Notes: generated by a model from the sequence alone, not told the origin. A DNA stretch of 64,000 bases from an uncultured bacterium (GCA_903821355.1 CAIJKW010000022.1:423-64422), one strand, 5' to 3'. Counted from the first letter of the stretch, positions 6,371-16,858 are shown. Translations and numbers: made by a program.

Positions 6371-7132
6371 ATGGACTTAACATTTATAATAGTAGTTATC
6401 GTAGTAATTCTTTTGACGATGTCACTTAAAGTCGTAAAAGAATATGACAGAGGCGTCATCTTTTTCCTAGGAAAAGTGACTGGTGTTCGCGGGCCTGGAC
6501 TTATCATCCTCATCCCAATTTTTGAGCAGATGACAAAGGTGTCGCTTAGAACAATTACGATGAGCATTCCTTCGCAAAAAATTATTACAAAAGATAATGT
6601 TTCAATTGATATCGCGGCGGTTGCGTATTATCACATTTTGGATCCGCAGAAGTCAGTTGTTGCAATTGAAGATGTTTATAGTGCAGTTAATCAAATTAGT
6701 CAGACAACGGTTAGAAATATCGTTGGGCAATTTGAGCTGGATCAATTGTTGCAAAAGACGGGGCAAATTAATGTGCAGATTAAGGAAGTGATCGATATTC
6801 ATACAGAGCCATGGGGAATTCAAGTTACTGCTGTTGAGATTAAAGACATTACTTTGCCTGACAATATGCAAAGAGCGATGGCCAAGGAGGCGGAGGCTGA
6901 GCGTGAGCGTCGTGCCAAGATTGTTGCGGCTGAAGGAGAGTTCCAAGCTGCGGTTAAGCTTTGCGAGGCGGCAGATCTAATTTCCGCGCATCCTGTTGCA
7001 CTACAATTGCGCACTCTTCAGACGATGGCGGAAATCTCCGTGGAAAAGAACTCGACAATCATTTTCCCTGCGCAGTTTATGACGACGGTGAGCGAGGCGA
7101 TTTCCATGATTAGAGGTGATGTGAAGAAATAG
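6371..7132 (+). CDS. SPFH/band-7 (stomatin-like) membrane protein
   Basis: N-terminal TM. VKEYDRGVIFFLGK...PSQKIITKDNVSIDIAAVAYY...AKEAEAERERRAKIVAAEGE is typical of stomatin/prohibitin family. Confidence 0.85.
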   Translation: MDLTFIIVVIVVILLTMSLKVVKEYDRGVIFFLGKVTGVRGPGLIILIPIFEQMTKVSLRTITMSIPSQKIITKDNVSIDIAAVAYYHILDPQKSVVAIEDVYSAVNQISQTTVRNIVGQFELDQLLQKTGQINVQIKEVIDIHTEPWGIQVTAVEIKDITLPDNMQRAMAKEAEAERERRAKIVAAEGEFQAAVKLCEAADLISAHPVALQLRTLQTMAEISVEKNSTIIFPAQFMTTVSEAISMIRGDVKK

Positions 7133-7172
7133 GCGGGTGGTGCGGGATGGAGAACAGATAGGGTTGGTTAAA

Positions 7173-7201
7173 CAAAGGGCGCCGTGAGGCGTCTTTTTTG
7201 T
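7173..7201 (+). terminator. Probable intrinsic terminator
   Basis: aagggcgcc-gtga-ggcgtcttt hairpin with G-U pairs, then TTTTTTG. Confidence 0.5.
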
Positions 7202-7208
7202 CAAAAAC

Positions 7209-7268
7209 TAGTGAATGACAGGTTGTTTTAACCCTCCATTCACTAAAAAATGGCAAAATTTAGTGAAT
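7209..7268 (+). promoter_or_regulatory. Three-arm element able to form two mutually exclusive hairpins
   Basis: Arm A tagtgaatg (7209-7217) and arm C tttagtgaatg (7258-7268) are both complementary to the central arm B cattcactaaa (7237-7247). Confidence 0.3.
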
Positions 7269-7539
7269 GAGAAGTAAAGACGAGAGACGTCCAGTGGATT
7301 TTTGTCTGTTTTTGTTTTGTCTGTAATATTTTTGCTTCTCGTTCGTTTTATTAAATATCACAAGCTCATCCCAGTGCTATACACTGTGTAAGGCTAGGGT
7401 AATTTAGTGAGCGACCCAGTAGGTCATCCTGCTGGATGACATGCACTTTAGAGCCGACTCATGGTTGTAATACCATGAACCCATATGTCAAAGCTTTATA
7501 TTGATGTATAGACTAGATATATTGCTGGGTAATATTGTC

Positions 7540-7572
7540 AAAACAGAGACGCTTAGGTGTCTCTGTTTTGCA
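7540..7572. terminator. Bidirectional intrinsic terminator
   Basis: aaaacagagac-gcttaggt-gtctctgtttt: 11-bp stem flanked by an A-run and a T-run. Confidence 0.6.
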
Positions 7573-7636
7573 TATTATGTAGAGTTTTTTTACATCAAGC
7601 TTAAACTTTTTTACGTTTCTTAATATATTTATATCA

Positions 7637-8146
7637 ATGATTACTAATGAAAAAAAAGAAAAAGAGGAATCTCCAGATTATGAAAAGTATAAACAAATGA
7701 TATTGGCTTTTTTGCGACTGGAGAAAAGTATTACAAAAATAAAGTTTGCCAAGCTATTATATTTTGCTGATTTTGCATGGTTTTATAACAATCTCAAAAG
7801 TATGAGTGGAATGCAATATAGAAAAATTCAACAATATGGTCCTATTGCTGATTCGTACTTTAGAATTGTCGATGAGATGTATGACCAAGGTGAAATAAGA
7901 ATTAATCACATAAAAGACGGTGCAACACTCATCTCTTCAACCAGAAGTGGAGATATGATGTATTTGCATAAAATTGCAAAAGCAGAATTCGCCTTAATCA
8001 AAAAAATAGAAAAAAAGTGGAAAGATGAAAAGACTTCTGAAATAGTCGATTTTACTCGCAAACAACTGCCTTTTCTACTGGCACATGAAAATGAAATAGT
8101 ATCATACGATGTATTTGGTCAAGAAGATCCTGATAAAATATTTTAG
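7637..8146 (+). CDS. Panacea (DUF4065, SocA-like antitoxin) domain protein
   Basis: KFAKLLYFADFAWFYNNLKSMSGMQYRKIQQYGPIADSYFRIVDEM matches the Panacea/SocA consensus (KLqKLLYFa...W..yGPv...Y). Confidence 0.55.
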   Translation: MITNEKKEKEESPDYEKYKQMILAFLRLEKSITKIKFAKLLYFADFAWFYNNLKSMSGMQYRKIQQYGPIADSYFRIVDEMYDQGEIRINHIKDGATLISSTRSGDMMYLHKIAKAEFALIKKIEKKWKDEKTSEIVDFTRKQLPFLLAHENEIVSYDVFGQEDPDKIF

Positions 8147-8333
8147 TTGTTTATACGAGCTTTTTTTCTCAAATTGACTTTTGAATTCAGTGGATATATA
8201 ATCTCAGTAGAAGTATGCAATAATAGCTTTTCAGGCGCTTGAGTGTTCCCTCAGAGGATCTGGGGTATAAATGATAAATCATTTATGTAGCTTAAGAACA
8301 CCGCCTGACTAGACGCTACTTCTAACAAAGTAA

Positions 8334-8356
8334 GTCTGCTTGGCAGGCTTTTTTTG
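8334..8356. terminator. Terminator shared by the convergent genes
   Basis: gtctgc-ttg-gcaggc hairpin followed by TTTTTTTGTT. Confidence 0.6.
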
Positions 8357-8394
8357 TTAGTATTAAAATGTTTTTATATAAGTATTCATTGTAT

Positions 8395-9042
8395 TTATTC
8401 TGCAAAAAATTCCCTTCCTTTATCTAAAAAATTATTTTTTAATATTTTAAAATATTCTCCACCATCCTTACCTTCCTCCAGATATCTGAAAATTGCTCCA
8501 GAAATCCAGTCTGCAATTTGTATGTTTGTATTTGAAGTAGAATCAATCATGTGTACTTGAATCATGGTTTCAGCAGAACATAGAGGTAAAAGCTTCCCTG
8601 TAATATGCGATTCAAATTCACTTTTAGACATGTCTTTTAATGATCTTTGATCACAGAATATATAAATCTCTTTTTCGTCCGTAGGTAAATATGTCCCAAG
8701 TGTCTCAGCAATAATATTTGCGTATAAAATACCGCTATCTAATTTTCCCTTCCTTCTATATTTACTCGGTATATTATTTATTGATAAAAAACCATATCTG
8801 ATACGAACGTCCATATTTGAGATGTATTTAACTGTATGAATGCGAAGTTTATCAGCAATTCCTGTTGCAGACCATTTGATTTCACCTTGCTTCCGCATCT
8901 TTTTTGGAAACTTACTGTTTATCCAAGCTTTAAAAGCTTTTGCGGTAGCCTTCTGATTACTTACAGTAAAAGAGCCGATCACGAAATATTCTTCATGATT
9001 ATGTTTTGTAAAATTTCCACTTTCATCTAAAAATATGTACAT
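8395..9042 (-). CDS. DUF3800 family protein
   Basis: N-terminal MYIFLDESGNF and C-terminal NIQIADWISGAIFR match the DUF3800 hallmarks (YiDESG ... QlADlia). Confidence 0.6.
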   Translation of the reverse strand: MYIFLDESGNFTKHNHEEYFVIGSFTVSNQKATAKAFKAWINSKFPKKMRKQGEIKWSATGIADKLRIHTVKYISNMDVRIRYGFLSINNIPSKYRRKGKLDSGILYANIIAETLGTYLPTDEKEIYIFCDQRSLKDMSKSEFESHITGKLLPLCSAETMIQVHMIDSTSNTNIQIADWISGAIFRYLEEGKDGGEYFKILKNNFLDKGREFFAE

Positions 9043-9357
9043 AAAATTTATAAAATAAGTTTCCCAAGGTCTTCATAGAGGTAAACCAAAAATCAATGTC
9101 TTAACCTTCTAGTTTGAAATTTTGCAGGCCTTAAAATACCCTTATTTCTGAGAGTTTGCCATTAATCTTAAAAATTCAGCTTTAGTGCCCCTAAAACCCC
9201 TCAGTGATTTTTTTGATATTTTTTTCTTTTTCATAATGACACATAATACAGATGAGACATGATACCTTTATAAAGAGAATCTAAAGAATTACCAACATTT
9301 TTCTTTGGTATTTTAGTAGTGTTGTGGATAAGTCATTTATATGGCAATATTTATTGT

Positions 9358-9705
9358 ATGGACCCTATAAAAAGACTAACTAAAAAGATAGTGGCGTTTA
9401 GAAACAGGAGAAATTGGAAACAATTTCACAACCCAAAAGATTTATCAATATCGTTGGTTCTAGAAGCAACAGAACTGATGGAACATTTTCAATGGAAGAA
9501 TACACAGGAGACAGAAGAATATGTTAAGAAAAATAAAGCAGAAATATCAGAAGAAATAGCGGATGTTTTATATTATATCTTATTAATTTCTCACGACATG
9601 AAAATTGATGTAGAAAAAGCTTTAGATAGGAAGATTGAAATAAATGACAAAAAATATCCTGTAGAAAAATCAAAAGGTAATCATACTAAATATAATAAGT
9701 TATAA
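9358..9705 (+). CDS. MazG-like nucleoside-triphosphate pyrophosphohydrolase (all-alpha NTP-PPase)
   Basis: KKIVAFRNRRNWKQFHNPKDLSISLVLEATELMEHFQW...EEIADVLYYILLIS is the MazG/YpjD-like EExxE/D core. Stop is 2 nt before the next start. Confidence 0.6.
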   Translation: MDPIKRLTKKIVAFRNRRNWKQFHNPKDLSISLVLEATELMEHFQWKNTQETEEYVKKNKAEISEEIADVLYYILLISHDMKIDVEKALDRKIEINDKKYPVEKSKGNHTKYNKL

Positions 9706-9707
9706 AA

Positions 9708-11576
9708 ATGATAGTATACTCTAAGCAGAAAATTGACTTTAAAAAAGATATCATGTCCAATAATATTGGTAATATTATTTTAGACAACTACAAAAGAGTT
9801 ACTGGCAGAAATACAGGGAAATCAGAATTTGATTCTTGGACAAATTCATTACAATATATGGAGAGAGTTTTATCAGATTCAGAAATTCCTGATGATGCCG
9901 GTATCGCTATTGAGTATCATATTCCTCAGTCATCAAAGAGGGTAGATTTTATAATTACAGGTTCTGATTCTGAAAAAAATGAATCCGCTATTTTAATAGA
10001 ATTAAAACAATGGCAGACAGCCAAGCTTACAGAAAAAGACGCTGTCGTTATTACTAGATTTAAAGGAGGGGAACAAGAGACGACACATCCTTCATATCAG
10101 GCCTGGTCCTACAAAAGGTTACTTGAAGATTTCAATCAAACTGTAGATGAAGATAAAATCCAACTATTTCCTTGTGCGTATCTTCATAACTATGATTCTG
10201 ATAACGTAATAGATAATGATTTTTATGGTGAATACACAAATAACGCTCCTCTGTTCTTAAAACCTGATGCAGTTAAATTGCAGGATTTTATAAAAGCACA
10301 TGTTAAACATGGAGACAAGAGTCGAATAATGTTTCGGATAGATAATGGTAAAATTCGACCGTCAAAAAGTTTAGCTGATCAATTAAGCTCTATGTTGTTT
10401 GGCAATACAGAGTTTACAATGATTGATGATCAGAAAATTGTATACGAGACAGCTATTAATCTGGCAAAGACATCGCATGAAAATAATAAAAACGTTCTGA
10501 TTGTTCAAGGCGGTCCAGGAACCGGTAAGTCTGTGGTCGCTATAAATTTACTTGTAGCGCTGACTAATCTTCCTGAAAATAGACTTGTGACTCAATATAT
10601 AACTCGTAATTCTGCCCCAAGAGCTGTCTATGAAGCTAAATTAACTGGAAGCCATAAAAAATCTCACATTACAAATATGTTTAGTGGTTCAGGATCTTTT
10701 CATTCAGTTAAATCAAATATTTTTGATGCGTTAATAGTGGATGAAGCCCACAGACTTAATGCTAAGTCTGGAATGTTTAGTCACTTAGGTGAAAATCAGG
10801 TTAAGGAAATAATTAATGCTTCAAAATTTAGTGTATTTTTTATTGATGAAGATCAAAAGGTCACACTTAAAGATATTGGTGATACAGAAGAAATTAAAAA
10901 ATATGCAAAACAACTTAATGCGAATGTCGTTGATATGACCCTAGAATCACAATTTAGATGTAATGGTTCAGACGGGTATTTGGCTTGGTTGGATGATGTG
11001 CTTCAGATAAGACAAACTGCAAATAATTCTTTGAAAGAACTGAATTACGACTTTAAGATATTTGATGATCCTCAAAAAATGCACGATGAAATAGTTGAAA
11101 AAAATAAAGAAAAGAACAAAGCTCGTGTTGTTGCTGGGTATTGTTGGAAGTGGATTAGTAAAAACAGGCCCGTGCTTAAAGATATCGTGATAGGTAATTA
11201 TAAAGCTACCTGGAATTTGAATGAAGATGGGCAAGCGTGGATTATTAAACCTGAATCTGTAACAGAAGTTGGATGCATACACACATGTCAGGGATTAGAG
11301 GTCGATTATGTCGGTGTGATTATAGGAAAAGATTTGATAGTTAGAGATGATGTAATTAAGACCGTACCAGAAGAGCGAGCAAGTACGGATAAATCTGTAC
11401 ACGGGTGGAAGAAGATGTTTAAAGAAAATCCAGAAGAGACTCTGAGAAAACTAGATTTGATAATAAAAAATACTTATAGAACTTTAATGACTAGGGGAAT
11501 GAAAGGATGTTACGTATATTTCGAGGATAAAGAAACTGAGAAATATTTTAGAGAAAGACTGTCTTTTATAGAATAA
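9708..11576 (+). CDS. N-terminal PD-(D/E)xK nuclease-like domain fused to a DUF2075 (Nhi/Schlafen-helicase-like) P-loop ATPase
   Basis: N-terminus has VDFIITG...AILIELKQW (D ... ExK). Walker A is VQGGPGTGKSVVAIN and Walker B is ALIVDEAHRL. C-terminus GYCWKW...CIHTCQGLEVDYVGVIIG is typical of DUF2075 proteins. Confidence 0.65.
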   Translation: MIVYSKQKIDFKKDIMSNNIGNIILDNYKRVTGRNTGKSEFDSWTNSLQYMERVLSDSEIPDDAGIAIEYHIPQSSKRVDFIITGSDSEKNESAILIELKQWQTAKLTEKDAVVITRFKGGEQETTHPSYQAWSYKRLLEDFNQTVDEDKIQLFPCAYLHNYDSDNVIDNDFYGEYTNNAPLFLKPDAVKLQDFIKAHVKHGDKSRIMFRIDNGKIRPSKSLADQLSSMLFGNTEFTMIDDQKIVYETAINLAKTSHENNKNVLIVQGGPGTGKSVVAINLLVALTNLPENRLVTQYITRNSAPRAVYEAKLTGSHKKSHITNMFSGSGSFHSVKSNIFDALIVDEAHRLNAKSGMFSHLGENQVKEIINASKFSVFFIDEDQKVTLKDIGDTEEIKKYAKQLNANVVDMTLESQFRCNGSDGYLAWLDDVLQIRQTANNSLKELNYDFKIFDDPQKMHDEIVEKNKEKNKARVVAGYCWKWISKNRPVLKDIVIGNYKATWNLNEDGQAWIIKPESVTEVGCIHTCQGLEVDYVGVIIGKDLIVRDDVIKTVPEERASTDKSVHGWKKMFKENPEETLRKLDLIIKNTYRTLMTRGMKGCYVYFEDKETEKYFRERLSFIE

Positions 11577-11583
11577 TAATTGG

Positions 11584-12273
11584 ATGATTCCAACCCTCCT
11601 AAAATTAAAAAGAAAAATAAACAAACTAAGGCGGTCCATCAAAACCGCTCGCACCTCTCGTCCTGCCCGCCCAATCAAAACCTCAGAAAATCAAATCACG
11701 CTCAAGGGACAAAATGTTCCGTACGTCCTTCGCTTAAACCCTCGATCCAAATCTATTCGTCTTGCAATTCATTCGGGTGGGGAATTTACGGTGACAGCGC
11801 CGCCTAGGGTGACGCAGAAAATGATTGAGCATTTTATCGAGCTGAAAGCGGATTGGATACTGGAAAAGATTGCGCATTTTAAAAAGTTTGATTTGGCGCG
11901 CGGATCCGGGTCGCAAGCGTCGGCGCCGAGAAAAACTAAAGCACAGCAACGCGCGGAATATTTGGCTCTTAAAGATAAGGCGCTCAAAATTGCTACAGAA
12001 AAAGTTCTACATTGGAATGCCTTCTACAATTTTAAATTCAACAAAATCAGTATCAAAAATCAAAAAACCAGATGGGGGAGTTGTTCCAAAAATGGGAATC
12101 TGAATTTCAATTACAAAATTGCGCTTCTGCCTGAAAATTTGGCGGACTATCTTGTTGTGCACGAGATTGCACACCTCGGCCAATTTAATCACTCGGCAAA
12201 ATTTTGGGCGCTTGTAGCACAAACAATTCCGGATTATCAGACGCTTAGAAAAGAATTGAAGGGAGTTAAATAA
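11584..12273 (+). CDS. YgjP-like metal-dependent hydrolase (DUF45, WLM/M48-like HExxH)
   Basis: C-terminal LADYLVVHEIAHLGQFNHSAKFWALV contains the HEIAH zinc motif of the DUF45/YgjP family. Starts 7 nt after the preceding gene. Confidence 0.7.
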   Translation: MIPTLLKLKRKINKLRRSIKTARTSRPARPIKTSENQITLKGQNVPYVLRLNPRSKSIRLAIHSGGEFTVTAPPRVTQKMIEHFIELKADWILEKIAHFKKFDLARGSGSQASAPRKTKAQQRAEYLALKDKALKIATEKVLHWNAFYNFKFNKISIKNQKTRWGSCSKNGNLNFNYKIALLPENLADYLVVHEIAHLGQFNHSAKFWALVAQTIPDYQTLRKELKGVK

Positions 12274-16333: not shown

Positions 16334-16858
16334 TTAGGCCGAAACGGAGAGCGAGGACGCCTTTCCGGCACGGATTTCTTCCACCGCTTGCCAGATTGCC
16401 TGGCTAAGTGGTTTTTGGCACTTCTTCGGTACCACCTTGTCCAACTCGACGGGGTAGATCTGGTGTCCGTCCTTGCAGGGTTGCCCCTTCTTGACATGAA
16501 CCAGAACGGCGCTGGGATGCCCAGAAACTGGCACTAAAACGAATTCATCGAGCCCGTCGTAGGCTTTGATGAAATCATGGATGACATCCTCCGGGGTGTT
16601 GCAGACAGAGCAGTTGCAGTTGTTGAGACGGAACGGTGTGAATTCTTCATGCACCACGTGGATGCAGGCATGGCCGCATTTTGTGACGCTCACGAAATAC
16701 AAATCCAAGTAAGTTCCTTTCTCATTGGCCTTGGCTCGAGCGCACCTGGCAGCACCTTTTTGTTGTGCTCTTTGGACGCGCTCTTCGGCCTCTCGTGCTC
16801 TCCGTTCTGATTTGTCTTCGACAAGGGGTTTGGTAGGTCCGACATTTTTGACACTCAT
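16334..16858 (-). CDS. Cys-rich hypothetical protein, strongly GC-rich (likely horizontally acquired)
   Basis: 174-aa ORF with diverse composition and Cys pairs (CGHAC, CNCSVC). Markedly GC-rich. Overlapping alternative-frame ORFs are shorter. Confidence 0.45.
   Translation of the reverse strand: MSVKNVGPTKPLVEDKSERRAREAEERVQRAQQKGAARCARAKANEKGTYLDLYFVSVTKCGHACIHVVHEEFTPFRLNNCNCSVCNTPEDVIHDFIKAYDGLDEFVLVPVSGHPSAVLVHVKKGQPCKDGHQIYPVELDKVVPKKCQKPLSQAIWQAVEEIRAGKASSLSVSA

Follow-up and report, generated by a model that had tools for sequence, protein, structure and literature searches.

The analyzed stretch, in the following called the window, comprises 64,000 nucleotides of DNA from an uncultured bacterium (GCA_903821355.1 CAIJKW010000022.1:423-64422). 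Between positions 9358 and 12273 it carries three genes on the plus strand, for a MazG-like protein, a nuclease-helicase and a DUF45 protein, which had been described in an earlier note, made from the sequence alone, as a tightly coupled operon and a candidate anti-phage or nucleotide-targeting system. All three open reading frames (ORFs) were recovered at the positions given there. The MazG-like gene (9358-9705, +) encodes 115 aa from its ATG and is the conserved upstream partner of the nuclease-helicase gene (9708-11576, +), whose 622-aa product, the predicted effector, consists of an N-terminal PD-(D/E)xK domain fused to a DUF2075/Schlafen-group-3 helicase of superfamily 1 (SF1). The third gene (11584-12273, +) encodes a DUF45/YgjP-like HExxH metallohydrolase of 229 aa. 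The gaps between the genes, read directly in the DNA, were 2 nt (TAA-aa-ATG) and 7 nt (TAA-taattgg-ATG), as previously noted. Since no terminator-like site was found on the plus strand inside 9358-12273, co-transcription of all three genes is plausible. In the 315-nt spacer immediately 5' of the operon (9043-9357) promoter-like sites were not more frequent than in shuffled sequences, and no notable repeats were present, just weak AT-rich inverted repeats. Searches with Pfam hidden Markov models (HMMs) supported the proposed domain assignments of all three genes (PF12643, PF09848 and PF01863), and none of the three proteins had an informative family in NCBIfam.

The MazG-like protein matched PF12643 with E=5e-18 (65.6 bits versus a cut-off of 27). 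Among PDB sequences, matches were obtained to the archaeal pyrophosphatase 4qgp (1.5e-20) and to mouse/human dCTP pyrophosphatase 1 (DCTPP1; 6.7e-19), and judged by its sequence it is a clear homologue of the all-alpha nucleoside triphosphate (NTP) pyrophosphohydrolases of the DCTPP1/RS21-C6 type. DCTPP1/RS21-C6 and 4qgp share with it the ExxE...ExxD ligands, both Trp residues and the KYP...KY tail. The metal ligands E36, E39, E66 and D69 were invariant among 38 partner sequences, likewise W20, H24 and the C-terminal KYP...KY (K99-Y100, K111-Y112), and the same residues were at least 90% conserved across 73 sequences. Because the metal ligands and the residues shared with DCTPP1 are invariant, the protein looks like an active enzyme and not like a degenerate scaffold. 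DCTPP1 prefers dCTP and 5-modified dCTP, and by homology these nucleotides are the presumed substrates of the MazG-like protein as well. DCTPP1 is, however, a stand-alone house-cleaning enzyme, whereas the gene of the window family is translationally coupled to DNA endonucleases.

The C-terminal part of the nuclease-helicase (aa 261-607) was assigned to SLFN-g3_helicase, formerly DUF2075 (PF09848), with E=4.6e-108 and 362 bits versus a cut-off of 24, and the match covered model positions 1-354 of 354. Conservation was followed in two alignments, one of 63 homologues and one of 49 more distant proteins (31-63% identity). The Walker A motif GGPGTGKS (10509-10532, +; aa 268-275) was invariant in both, and in the Walker B/motif II sequence IVDEAH (10734-10751, +; aa 343-348) D345, E346 and H348 were invariant and A347 nearly so. 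Within the N-terminal restriction-endonuclease-like PD-(D/E)xK domain (9708-10472, +; aa 1-255), E69, R78, D80, E98, K100, W102, H127, P128, Q131 and Y135 were invariant in both alignments. The motifs quoted in the earlier note are invariant motifs of the family: beside the two ATPase motifs these are VDFIITG, which contains D80, and ELKQW, which contains E98 and K100. The nuclease catalytic core occupies 9945-10007 (+), with the D80 codon at 9945-9947 and E98-L-K100 at 9999-10007; E69 is located upstream at 9912-9914.

A full-length AF2 model, built from close homologues only, was of moderate quality (pLDDT 70), and its Foldseek matches were dominated by the helicase. Therefore, the N-domain was re-predicted with a more diverse alignment. 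In this prediction the consecutive strands b65-71, b78-86 and b92-100 carry the nuclease residues, with D80 on b78-86 and E98-x-K100 on b92-100. Catalytic D...(D/E)xK residues were accordingly present on strands 2 and 3, and the predicted domain agrees with the alpha-beta-beta-beta-alpha core fold of restriction endonucleases. Both the structure prediction and the strand placement of the invariant residues bear out the restriction-endonuclease fold that had been suggested for the N-terminus, and the fusion of a PD-(D/E)xK nuclease to a DUF2075 motor is confirmed at the level of sequence and predicted structure. When the full-length model was compared by Foldseek, SLFN11 (7zep) was the top match (E=2e-9, ∼10% identity), followed by RecD, coronavirus nsp13 and Upf1, a ranking that identifies the motor as SF1. 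At the level of sequence, the 622-aa protein matched nothing in the PDB at E<=0.01.

In PADLOC, the best match of the nuclease-helicase was PDC-S41 (E=1.5e-19, 68 bits), which aligned aa 4-303 with model positions 6-276 of 657. The Nhi model was matched with E=6.4e-10 and 36 bits (aa 233-421, model positions 178-333 of 470) and left the N-domain unaligned; the match to AbiO was weak (8e-10) and confined to the helicase core. The PADLOC Nhi HMM did not match over its full length. The N-domain constitutes a distinct family with ∼1800 cluster representatives. PHROGs contained no phage family for the nuclease-helicase or for DUF45, and an origin as phage genes was rejected.

More than 8000 homologues of the nuclease-helicase were found in the databases, and the best 120 were all at least 69% identical. 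To cover more distant relatives, one genome per species was scanned, which resulted in a set of 80 loci with nuclease-helicase identities of 58-73%. These span Patescibacteria, Desulfobacterota (Geobacter, Smithella), Elusimicrobiota, Bacteroidota, Beta-, Gamma- and Zetaproteobacteria, Nitrospirae, Acidobacteria, Melainabacteria and Omnitrophota, and include one metagenome-assembled genome (MAG) of Methanobacterium. Going by the sequences, horizontal transfer together with strong purifying selection is the only explanation for an identity of 58-73% across such distant phyla.

A MazG-like gene was detected in 72 of the 80 loci. It lay upstream on the same strand within 150 nt of the nuclease-helicase gene in 64 of them, and here the genes overlapped in 15 loci and were separated by 0-10 nt in 20. 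In five loci an insert of ∼530-1370 nt separated the two genes, and in three the MazG-like gene was convergent. No MazG-like gene could be detected nearby in 8 of the 80 loci, although two of the contigs (L037, L050) end too near the DUF2075 gene to tell. When all ORFs of the 80 loci were clustered all against all, every other family was limited to 11 loci at most, shadow ORFs within the two genes themselves excepted. Pairwise identities of both proteins were correlated (r=0.45, a value reached in 0 of 999 permutations), as expected under co-inheritance. The conserved unit is a pair of two genes, MazG-like and nuclease-helicase. Reciprocally, a metagenome scan starting from the alignment of the MazG-like partner gave 67 loci with enough downstream sequence, and an adjacent DUF2075 gene was present in 31 of these, including clades in which the MazG-like protein is 27-41% identical to that of the window.

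The pair is also found on plasmids. On plasmids of the haloarchaeon Halalkalicoccus jeotgali and of Priestia aryabhattai it is annotated as 'nucleotide pyrophosphohydrolase' and 'DUF2075 domain-containing protein'; on a Marivirga plasmid the pyrophosphohydrolase is annotated and the DUF2075 gene is apparently fragmented. A Microcystis 'phage' record (Mwe-JY31) contains the pair unannotated, and the other genes scanned there gave a TPR match or no Pfam match. From this distribution the two-gene cassette is judged to be horizontally mobile between distant bacteria and archaea. On a plasmid of Hymenobacter canadensis (L090, 5001-8987) two tandem paralogues of the DUF2075 nuclease-helicase were observed with no annotated pyrophosphohydrolase; a 207-aa gene lacking a Pfam match lies directly upstream of them, and a BPTD_3080-type restriction endonuclease and a DNA methyltransferase adjoin.

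The third gene of the window does not belong to this unit. Its product is clearly YgjP-like (PF01863, E=6e-44, 150.9 bits), with the HExxH motif present as HEIAH. Searches with the window DUF45 by tblastn and blastp identified no homologue within ∼6 kb of the pair in any of the 80 loci, and DUF45 was absent from the 82% and 76% relatives. In the 91% relative (L082) the sequence is colinear with the window at 81-84% nucleotide identity, except for a 467-bp segment between DUF2075 and DUF45 that carries a 133-aa gene. DUF45 thus accompanies the pair solely in genomes very closely related to the window, where the spacer gene is variable. The conserved MazG-DUF2075-DUF45 system that the gene order had suggested was rejected: DUF45 is inherited vertically and stands downstream of differing restriction genes in sister genomes. 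The vertical signal is seen in the smooth decay of identity of the DUF45 homologues from 90% to ∼50%, the named ones belonging to Paceibacterota, Nomurabacteria and Minisyncoccia.

The relatives of DUF45 usually keep TspO and/or NUDIX nearby, and the upstream gene varies. Upstream of the 90% relative, DUF2075 and then a 133-aa gene were found, on a contig that starts inside DUF2075; upstream of the 87% relative Fic, MazG-like and DUF2075; upstream of the 71% relative a reverse transcriptase and a 992-aa HsdR-like enzyme; and upstream of the 67% relative an HsdR-like enzyme, then two small genes. DpnI and then a 157-aa gene precede the 66% relative. One of two 52% relatives is preceded by an N6/N4 methylase and a MutH-like endonuclease, and the second by a transposase-like gene. 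A sister contig has the order Band_7-Fic-MazG-DUF2075-YgjP-TspO-NUDIX-XRE/Panacea-115aa-LeuRS, and comparison with the window demonstrates that the content between Band_7 and YgjP differs. DUF45 is a resident backbone gene of the Patescibacteria lineage outside the conserved cassette. Considering the changing upstream genes and the 467-bp insert of L082, the 7-nt junction between the nuclease-helicase and DUF45 is a local accident. DUF45 behaves like the downstream boundary of a slot where one restriction-type cassette replaces another, the pair being one such cassette.

It seems doubtful, therefore, that DUF45 acts as a functional third component, that is, as a Zn-metalloprotease or hydrolase accessory to any upstream restriction-type nuclease-helicase which might clear away enzyme that has stalled or is bound to DNA, or regulate its level, and would form a local three-gene unit. 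The 7-nt gap, the shared strand and the missing terminator are consistent with such an accessory, and the gene upstream of close DUF45 homologues was a DNA nuclease in 6 of the 7 contexts sampled; moreover, other protease-like modules join the pair, S24 being fused in 41 of 80 homologues and RadC/JAB inserted in L001, L002 and L004 (see below). DUF45/COG1451 genes are often located beside type I hsdR genes. The same pattern would nevertheless be expected from a gene that merely flanks an integration hotspot, and the absence of DUF45 from all 80 other pair loci and from the 82% and 76% relatives, as well as the 133-aa gene between DUF2075 and DUF45 in the 91% relative, speak against an accessory. 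DUF45 also stays with TspO and NUDIX in a backbone-like manner, and in one context only a transposase-like gene lies upstream.

Two sister contents of the slot were observed separately. In L091 (168-4957) a 146-aa gene, an RVT_1 reverse transcriptase (455 aa) and the 992-aa HsdR-like gene lie upstream of YgjP, and no methylase or specificity subunit was called nearby; in L096/L097 (1-3963) an HsdR-like gene is followed by genes for 294 and 80 aa. These may be unclassified defence cassettes based on reverse transcriptase or HsdR.

In the window, the variable island extends over 7133-11583 (unstranded), between the SPFH/Band_7 gene, which ends at 7132, and YgjP, which starts at 11584. It contains a structured spacer, a Panacea gene, a DUF3800-V RNA, a DUF3800 gene and the MazG/nuclease-helicase cassette. 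The flanking genes that had been named in the earlier note, Panacea, DUF3800 and housekeeping genes, were identified by Pfam as PF13274, PF12686, TspO, NUDIX and LeuRS. The hairpin-rich spacer of about 500 bp placed in front of the operon does exist, but as a 504-nt spacer (7133-7636, +) between the SPFH/Band_7 and Panacea genes, hence upstream of Panacea and not of the operon. Its folding energy was -162 compared with -121 ± 5.8 kcal/mol for shuffled sequences (z=-7.1), and long perfect hairpins occur in it several times, beside a repeated TAGTGAATGA motif. It matched no Rfam family at E<=0.1 and could represent stacked terminators, a remnant resembling a miniature inverted-repeat transposable element or an unannotated RNA. 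A DUF3800-V RNA motif (Rfam RF02964; 8209-8323, +) scored 65.6 bits versus a gathering score of 37.4 (E=1.7e-12) and is flanked by the Panacea gene and, in convergent orientation, the DUF3800 gene (8395-9042, -), whose product matched the PADLOC candidate PDC-M04A (E=1e-9).

The Panacea protein of the window (SocA-like antitoxin; 7637-8146, +) comprises 169 aa without an N-terminal helix-turn-helix (HTH) domain, whereas its relatives have 224-287 aa with HTH_3 and Panacea domains, and the partner gene of ∼115-132 aa that is present downstream in related contigs is missing. It may be a truncated or orphaned antitoxin. Further downstream, a Cys/His-rich ORF of 174 aa (16334-16858, -) gave no Pfam match and coincides with a local GC peak of 0.456 compared with ∼0.35 for the window; several shorter ORFs overlap it on both strands, and its coding status is uncertain. 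A tRNA scan of the window was negative, so no tRNA-linked integration site is present.

The nuclease head of the family can be exchanged. In five of the 31 MazG-like loci with an adjacent DUF2075 gene (L104, L106, L108, L117 and L133) a GIY-YIG-like motif was found at the N-terminus and the match to the window protein was limited to the helicase half; Pfam analysis of L104 and L106 gave the architecture GIY-YIG-DUF2075-S24. As the head has been exchanged with MazG partner and S24 tail both retained, there is good evidence that the head is truly a nuclease and that the association is functional. In MazG-like loci without DUF2075 the coupled downstream gene varies. It encodes an HNH endonuclease protein in L099 and L100, a Vsr mismatch endonuclease in L105 and L120 (PF03852, E=7e-29) and Pfam-less proteins of 350-470 aa in others, and where the MazG-like sequence is most distant, ordinary metabolic or RNA-modification genes follow. 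Overall, the DCTPP1-like gene is a recurrent, non-exclusive partner of DNA endonucleases. In addition, the gene for a nuclease of the HSDR_N type is inserted between the pair genes in L018, and on the Priestia plasmid the gene for an McrB_N protein, a domain that binds 5-methylcytosine DNA, overlaps the start of MazG.

The proteins of 346-469 aa that are translationally coupled downstream of MazG-like genes in L121, L122, L127, L128, L144 and L145 apparently form two or three families. Pfam gave no match for those of L121, L122, L144 and L145. They may be uncharacterized nuclease or reader partners of the DCTPP1-like enzyme; EVE/PUA reader domains had been suspected in such proteins, and with the four scanned proteins negative in Pfam no claim is made.

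While the window protein ends at aa 622 without a C-terminal extension or a PF00717 domain, 41 of the 80 homologues are long forms of 765-832 aa. Their additional 150-190 C-terminal residues were identified as Peptidase_S24 (PF00717; E=7e-26 in L064, 2e-9 in L031). A strict G[DE]SM serine motif was present in 32 of the 41 long forms, most others had a G-x-SMEP variant and L010 was degenerate; a TVK-type lysine motif and an upstream AAG/ACG/GCG resembling the cleavage site of LexA/UmuD were recurrent. LexA and UmuD cleave themselves on contact with filaments of RecA on single-stranded DNA (ssDNA), and by analogy the S24 long forms should do so too. The S24 domain of LexA, UmuD and phage repressors thus has its likeness in the long forms, with PF00717, the G-x-SM Ser, the TVK Lys and an AAG/GCG cleavage-site-like sequence; here it is fused to the C-terminus of a nuclease-helicase and not to the DNA-binding domain of a repressor. 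The frequent S24 tail and the very high conservation across phyla are two informative traits of the family that the earlier note does not mention.

In three loci (L001, 5295-5993; L002, 809-1522; L004, 4063-4761), from MAGs of the candidate phyla radiation or of unclassified bacteria, a RadC/JAB gene (PF04002, E=4.5e-40, with a helix-hairpin-helix N-terminal region) was inserted exactly between MazG-like and DUF2075. Counting also the fused S24 and the DUF45 of the window, three distinct peptidase-like modules were found attached to the pair.

The S24 tail raises the question whether the pair might be an SOS-linked module for DNA damage and genome maintenance, which would cleanse aberrant dCTP and process damaged or stalled replication intermediates and which would be tied to the SOS response by S24. 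Very high conservation across phyla, a LexA/UmuD-type S24 whose catalytic and cleavage-site motifs are intact, present in roughly half of the homologues, RadC insertions in three loci and a MazG clade coupled to the repair endonuclease Vsr are all compatible with such a role, and mammalian DCTPP1 is a house-cleaning enzyme while SLFN11 acts at stressed replication forks. We nevertheless consider this role rather improbable: the distribution is patchy and horizontally acquired, plasmids included, the neighbours are genes of restriction-modification (RM), toxin-antitoxin (TA) and abortive infection (Abi) type and not repair operons, sister genomes fill the slot of the pair with restriction enzymes, and the characterized prokaryotic proteins of the same architecture considered here, Nhi and Nhi-like, are anti-phage.

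The neighbourhood of the pair was sampled by taking the nearest flanking gene on each side of the 80 loci, which gave 143 pooled proteins. Pfam matches were found for Fic (8), RhuM (7), HNH_2 (5), DUF3427 (4), PLD-type nuclease along with SNF2/ResIII helicase (4 each), Panacea (3), Zeta toxin (3), Bro-N (3), McrB_N (2), Mrr (2) and reverse transcriptase (2). The PADLOC candidates PDC-S23 and PDC-S05 were matched by 7-9 flanking proteins each, and the Priestia and Hymenobacter copies are located between RM genes, i.e., in RM islands. The resemblance to a defence island, remarked on from the window sequence, was thus seen again in the Fic, RhuM and RM-type neighbours and in the restriction genes that sister genomes hold in the same slot.

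Among these neighbours, Panacea, Zeta and Fic represent TA modules. Their vicinity on plasmids and in variable regions, the horizontal spread of the pair and the translational coupling of a small upstream gene to a large effector would fit an addiction module of mobile elements in which the MazG-like protein keeps the nuclease-helicase toxin in check, with no dedicated antiviral role. The invariant catalytic residues, however, argue for an enzymatic role of the MazG-like protein over that of a purely stoichiometric inhibitor, the same MazG clade partners unrelated nucleases, and eight loci without a detected MazG-like gene nearby and three with a convergent one do not fit a toxin and its antidote. 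Addiction as the whole explanation is therefore very unlikely; TA/Abi functions and defence are in any case not mutually exclusive.

The three-gene combination of the window corresponds to no named system in PADLOC or in the literature searched, as the earlier note had supposed. By architecture, the closest experimentally studied proteins are Nhi of Staphylococcus epidermidis (SERP2475; Bari et al., 2022) and 'Nhi-like' (Millman et al., 2022), both of which were experimentally found to be anti-phage; Nhi nicks and unwinds phage DNA. They share with the window protein the arrangement of an N-terminal PD-(D/E)xK domain and a C-terminal SF1 helicase overlapping DUF2075 in one polypeptide, and the occurrence in defence contexts, but sequence similarity is weak and limited to the helicase core. 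Although the architecture is shared, the PADLOC Nhi match is partial and the window protein is therefore not a member of the Nhi sequence family. Nhi is moreover a single-gene system, whereas the window family is a gene pair with a DCTPP1-like partner and often an S24 tail, neither of which has been reported for Nhi.

PDC-S41, an untested single-gene candidate for phage defence in PADLOC, has no MazG partner and is closest by HMM, in the N-terminal nuclease half. Because this match is partial and its score modest (68 bits), the window family is probably a sister clade of PDC-S41. By fold, the helicase half of SLFN11/14 is closest. The human/mouse Schlafen group III proteins (SLFN11, SLFN14, SLFN5) resemble the family in PF09848, in their C-terminal helicase domain, and in the fusion of a nuclease to an SF1 ATPase with links to replication stress or antiviral restriction; their nuclease head, however, is a tRNA endoribonuclease of SLFN/AlbA type and not PD-(D/E)xK, and a MazG partner and S24 are lacking. 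The Nhi/Schlafen-like architecture proposed at the outset agrees with these comparisons, in which PADLOC Nhi and AbiO reached the helicase core only, PDC-S41 the N-terminal half, and SLFN11 was the top Foldseek match. Type I HsdR followed by DUF45/COG1451 is a further parallel, as a PD-(D/E)xK nuclease with a motor precedes a YgjP-like gene, and in sister genomes it occupies the same slot. HsdR, though, has an SF2 motor and requires HsdM and HsdS, in contrast to the window enzyme with its SF1/DUF2075 motor, a MazG partner and no methylase.

In a 2019 survey, DUF2075 NTPases were noted as neighbours of modification-dependent restriction enzymes, and phage attenuation was proposed as their role; in a 2026 preprint MazG-like domains were predicted as NTP-targeting effectors of another conflict system. 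The literature searched contained no mention of DUF2075 or Nhi together with MazG, nor of PDC-S41; a description in other journals is possible. What is new here is that a nuclease-helicase of the Nhi type has a dedicated DCTPP1-like partner, can carry a LexA-type tail and can exchange its nuclease head. The tight coupling to a DCTPP1 homologue throughout the prokaryotes, the tail, the unusually high conservation and the human counterparts for both parts have been unreported.

Taken together, the pair is best regarded, with somewhat more than even confidence, as a two-gene cassette directed against phages or other mobile genetic elements (MGEs), in which the nuclease-helicase would be the effector, by analogy with Nhi, and the DCTPP1-like enzyme would act on the pool of dCTP or modified dCTP. 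Domain identities, intact catalytic residues, linkage of the two genes, horizontal spread, defence-type neighbourhoods and the exclusion of DUF45 are shown here, whereas we infer that the pair acts against phages, what its enzymes act on and how both proteins cooperate. Several points weigh against this reading. The defence role is guilt by association and not the result of an experiment, and the cytosine specificity of the MazG-like enzyme is derived solely from DCTPP1 homology. In PADLOC, no model was matched by the MazG-like protein, and the Nhi and AbiO models reach only the helicase core of its partner (E ∼1e-9). The mean nuclease-helicase identity of 64% across phyla is unusual for an immune gene and more like that of repair or housekeeping genes, and the genome flanking the cassette in the window is mostly housekeeping. 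The eight loci in which no MazG-like gene was detected and the three in which it is convergent also count here, as does the fact that about half of the MazG-like loci have no DUF2075 gene, some of them looking like housekeeping loci.

If the pair is such a defence cassette, the nuclease-helicase would most likely load on foreign or aberrantly replicating DNA, translocate along it or unwind it at the expense of ATP, and then cut. Beside the nuclease, the DCTPP1-type enzyme would hydrolyse dCTP, though more likely its 5-modified forms, yielding the monophosphate. This could either starve phage DNA synthesis of a cytosine precursor or block the recycling of modified nucleotides from degraded DNA into the DNA of the host. 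In the long forms, the S24 tail would serve as a RecA*-dependent switch and couple the enzyme to RecA-ssDNA filaments, which are signals of DNA damage or phage replication.

More specifically, the DCTPP1-like enzyme could be the nucleotide-hygiene partner of endonucleases that attack DNA with modified cytosine, destroying 5-modified dCTP that arises as phage precursor or by salvage, with the S24 tail arming the nuclease-helicase at RecA-ssDNA filaments. We put this forward as a speculative idea that is unlikely to hold in full. If it were true, phage DNA synthesis would be blocked and the host genome would be kept free of the mark that is attacked by the nuclease, and the combination of effector nuclease, pool sanitizer and SOS-type trigger would represent a new defence logic.

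For the annotation of genomes, 'DUF2075 protein' and 'nucleotide pyrophosphohydrolase' should be read as one unit, and in Paceibacteria-like genomes the site preceding YgjP/DUF45 is to be seen as a hotspot for the exchange of defence cassettes. With its swappable head (PD-(D/E)xK or GIY-YIG) and an optional trigger of the LexA type, the system lends itself readily to dissection by mutation. If the pair is indeed immune, it would be a widespread and unusually conserved module of bacteria and archaea, with both parts homologous to human proteins (DCTPP1 and the helicase of Schlafen group III), in which a nucleotide-pool enzyme is hard-wired to a DNA-degrading effector, and it would extend the theme of immune components that are common to prokaryotes and animals.

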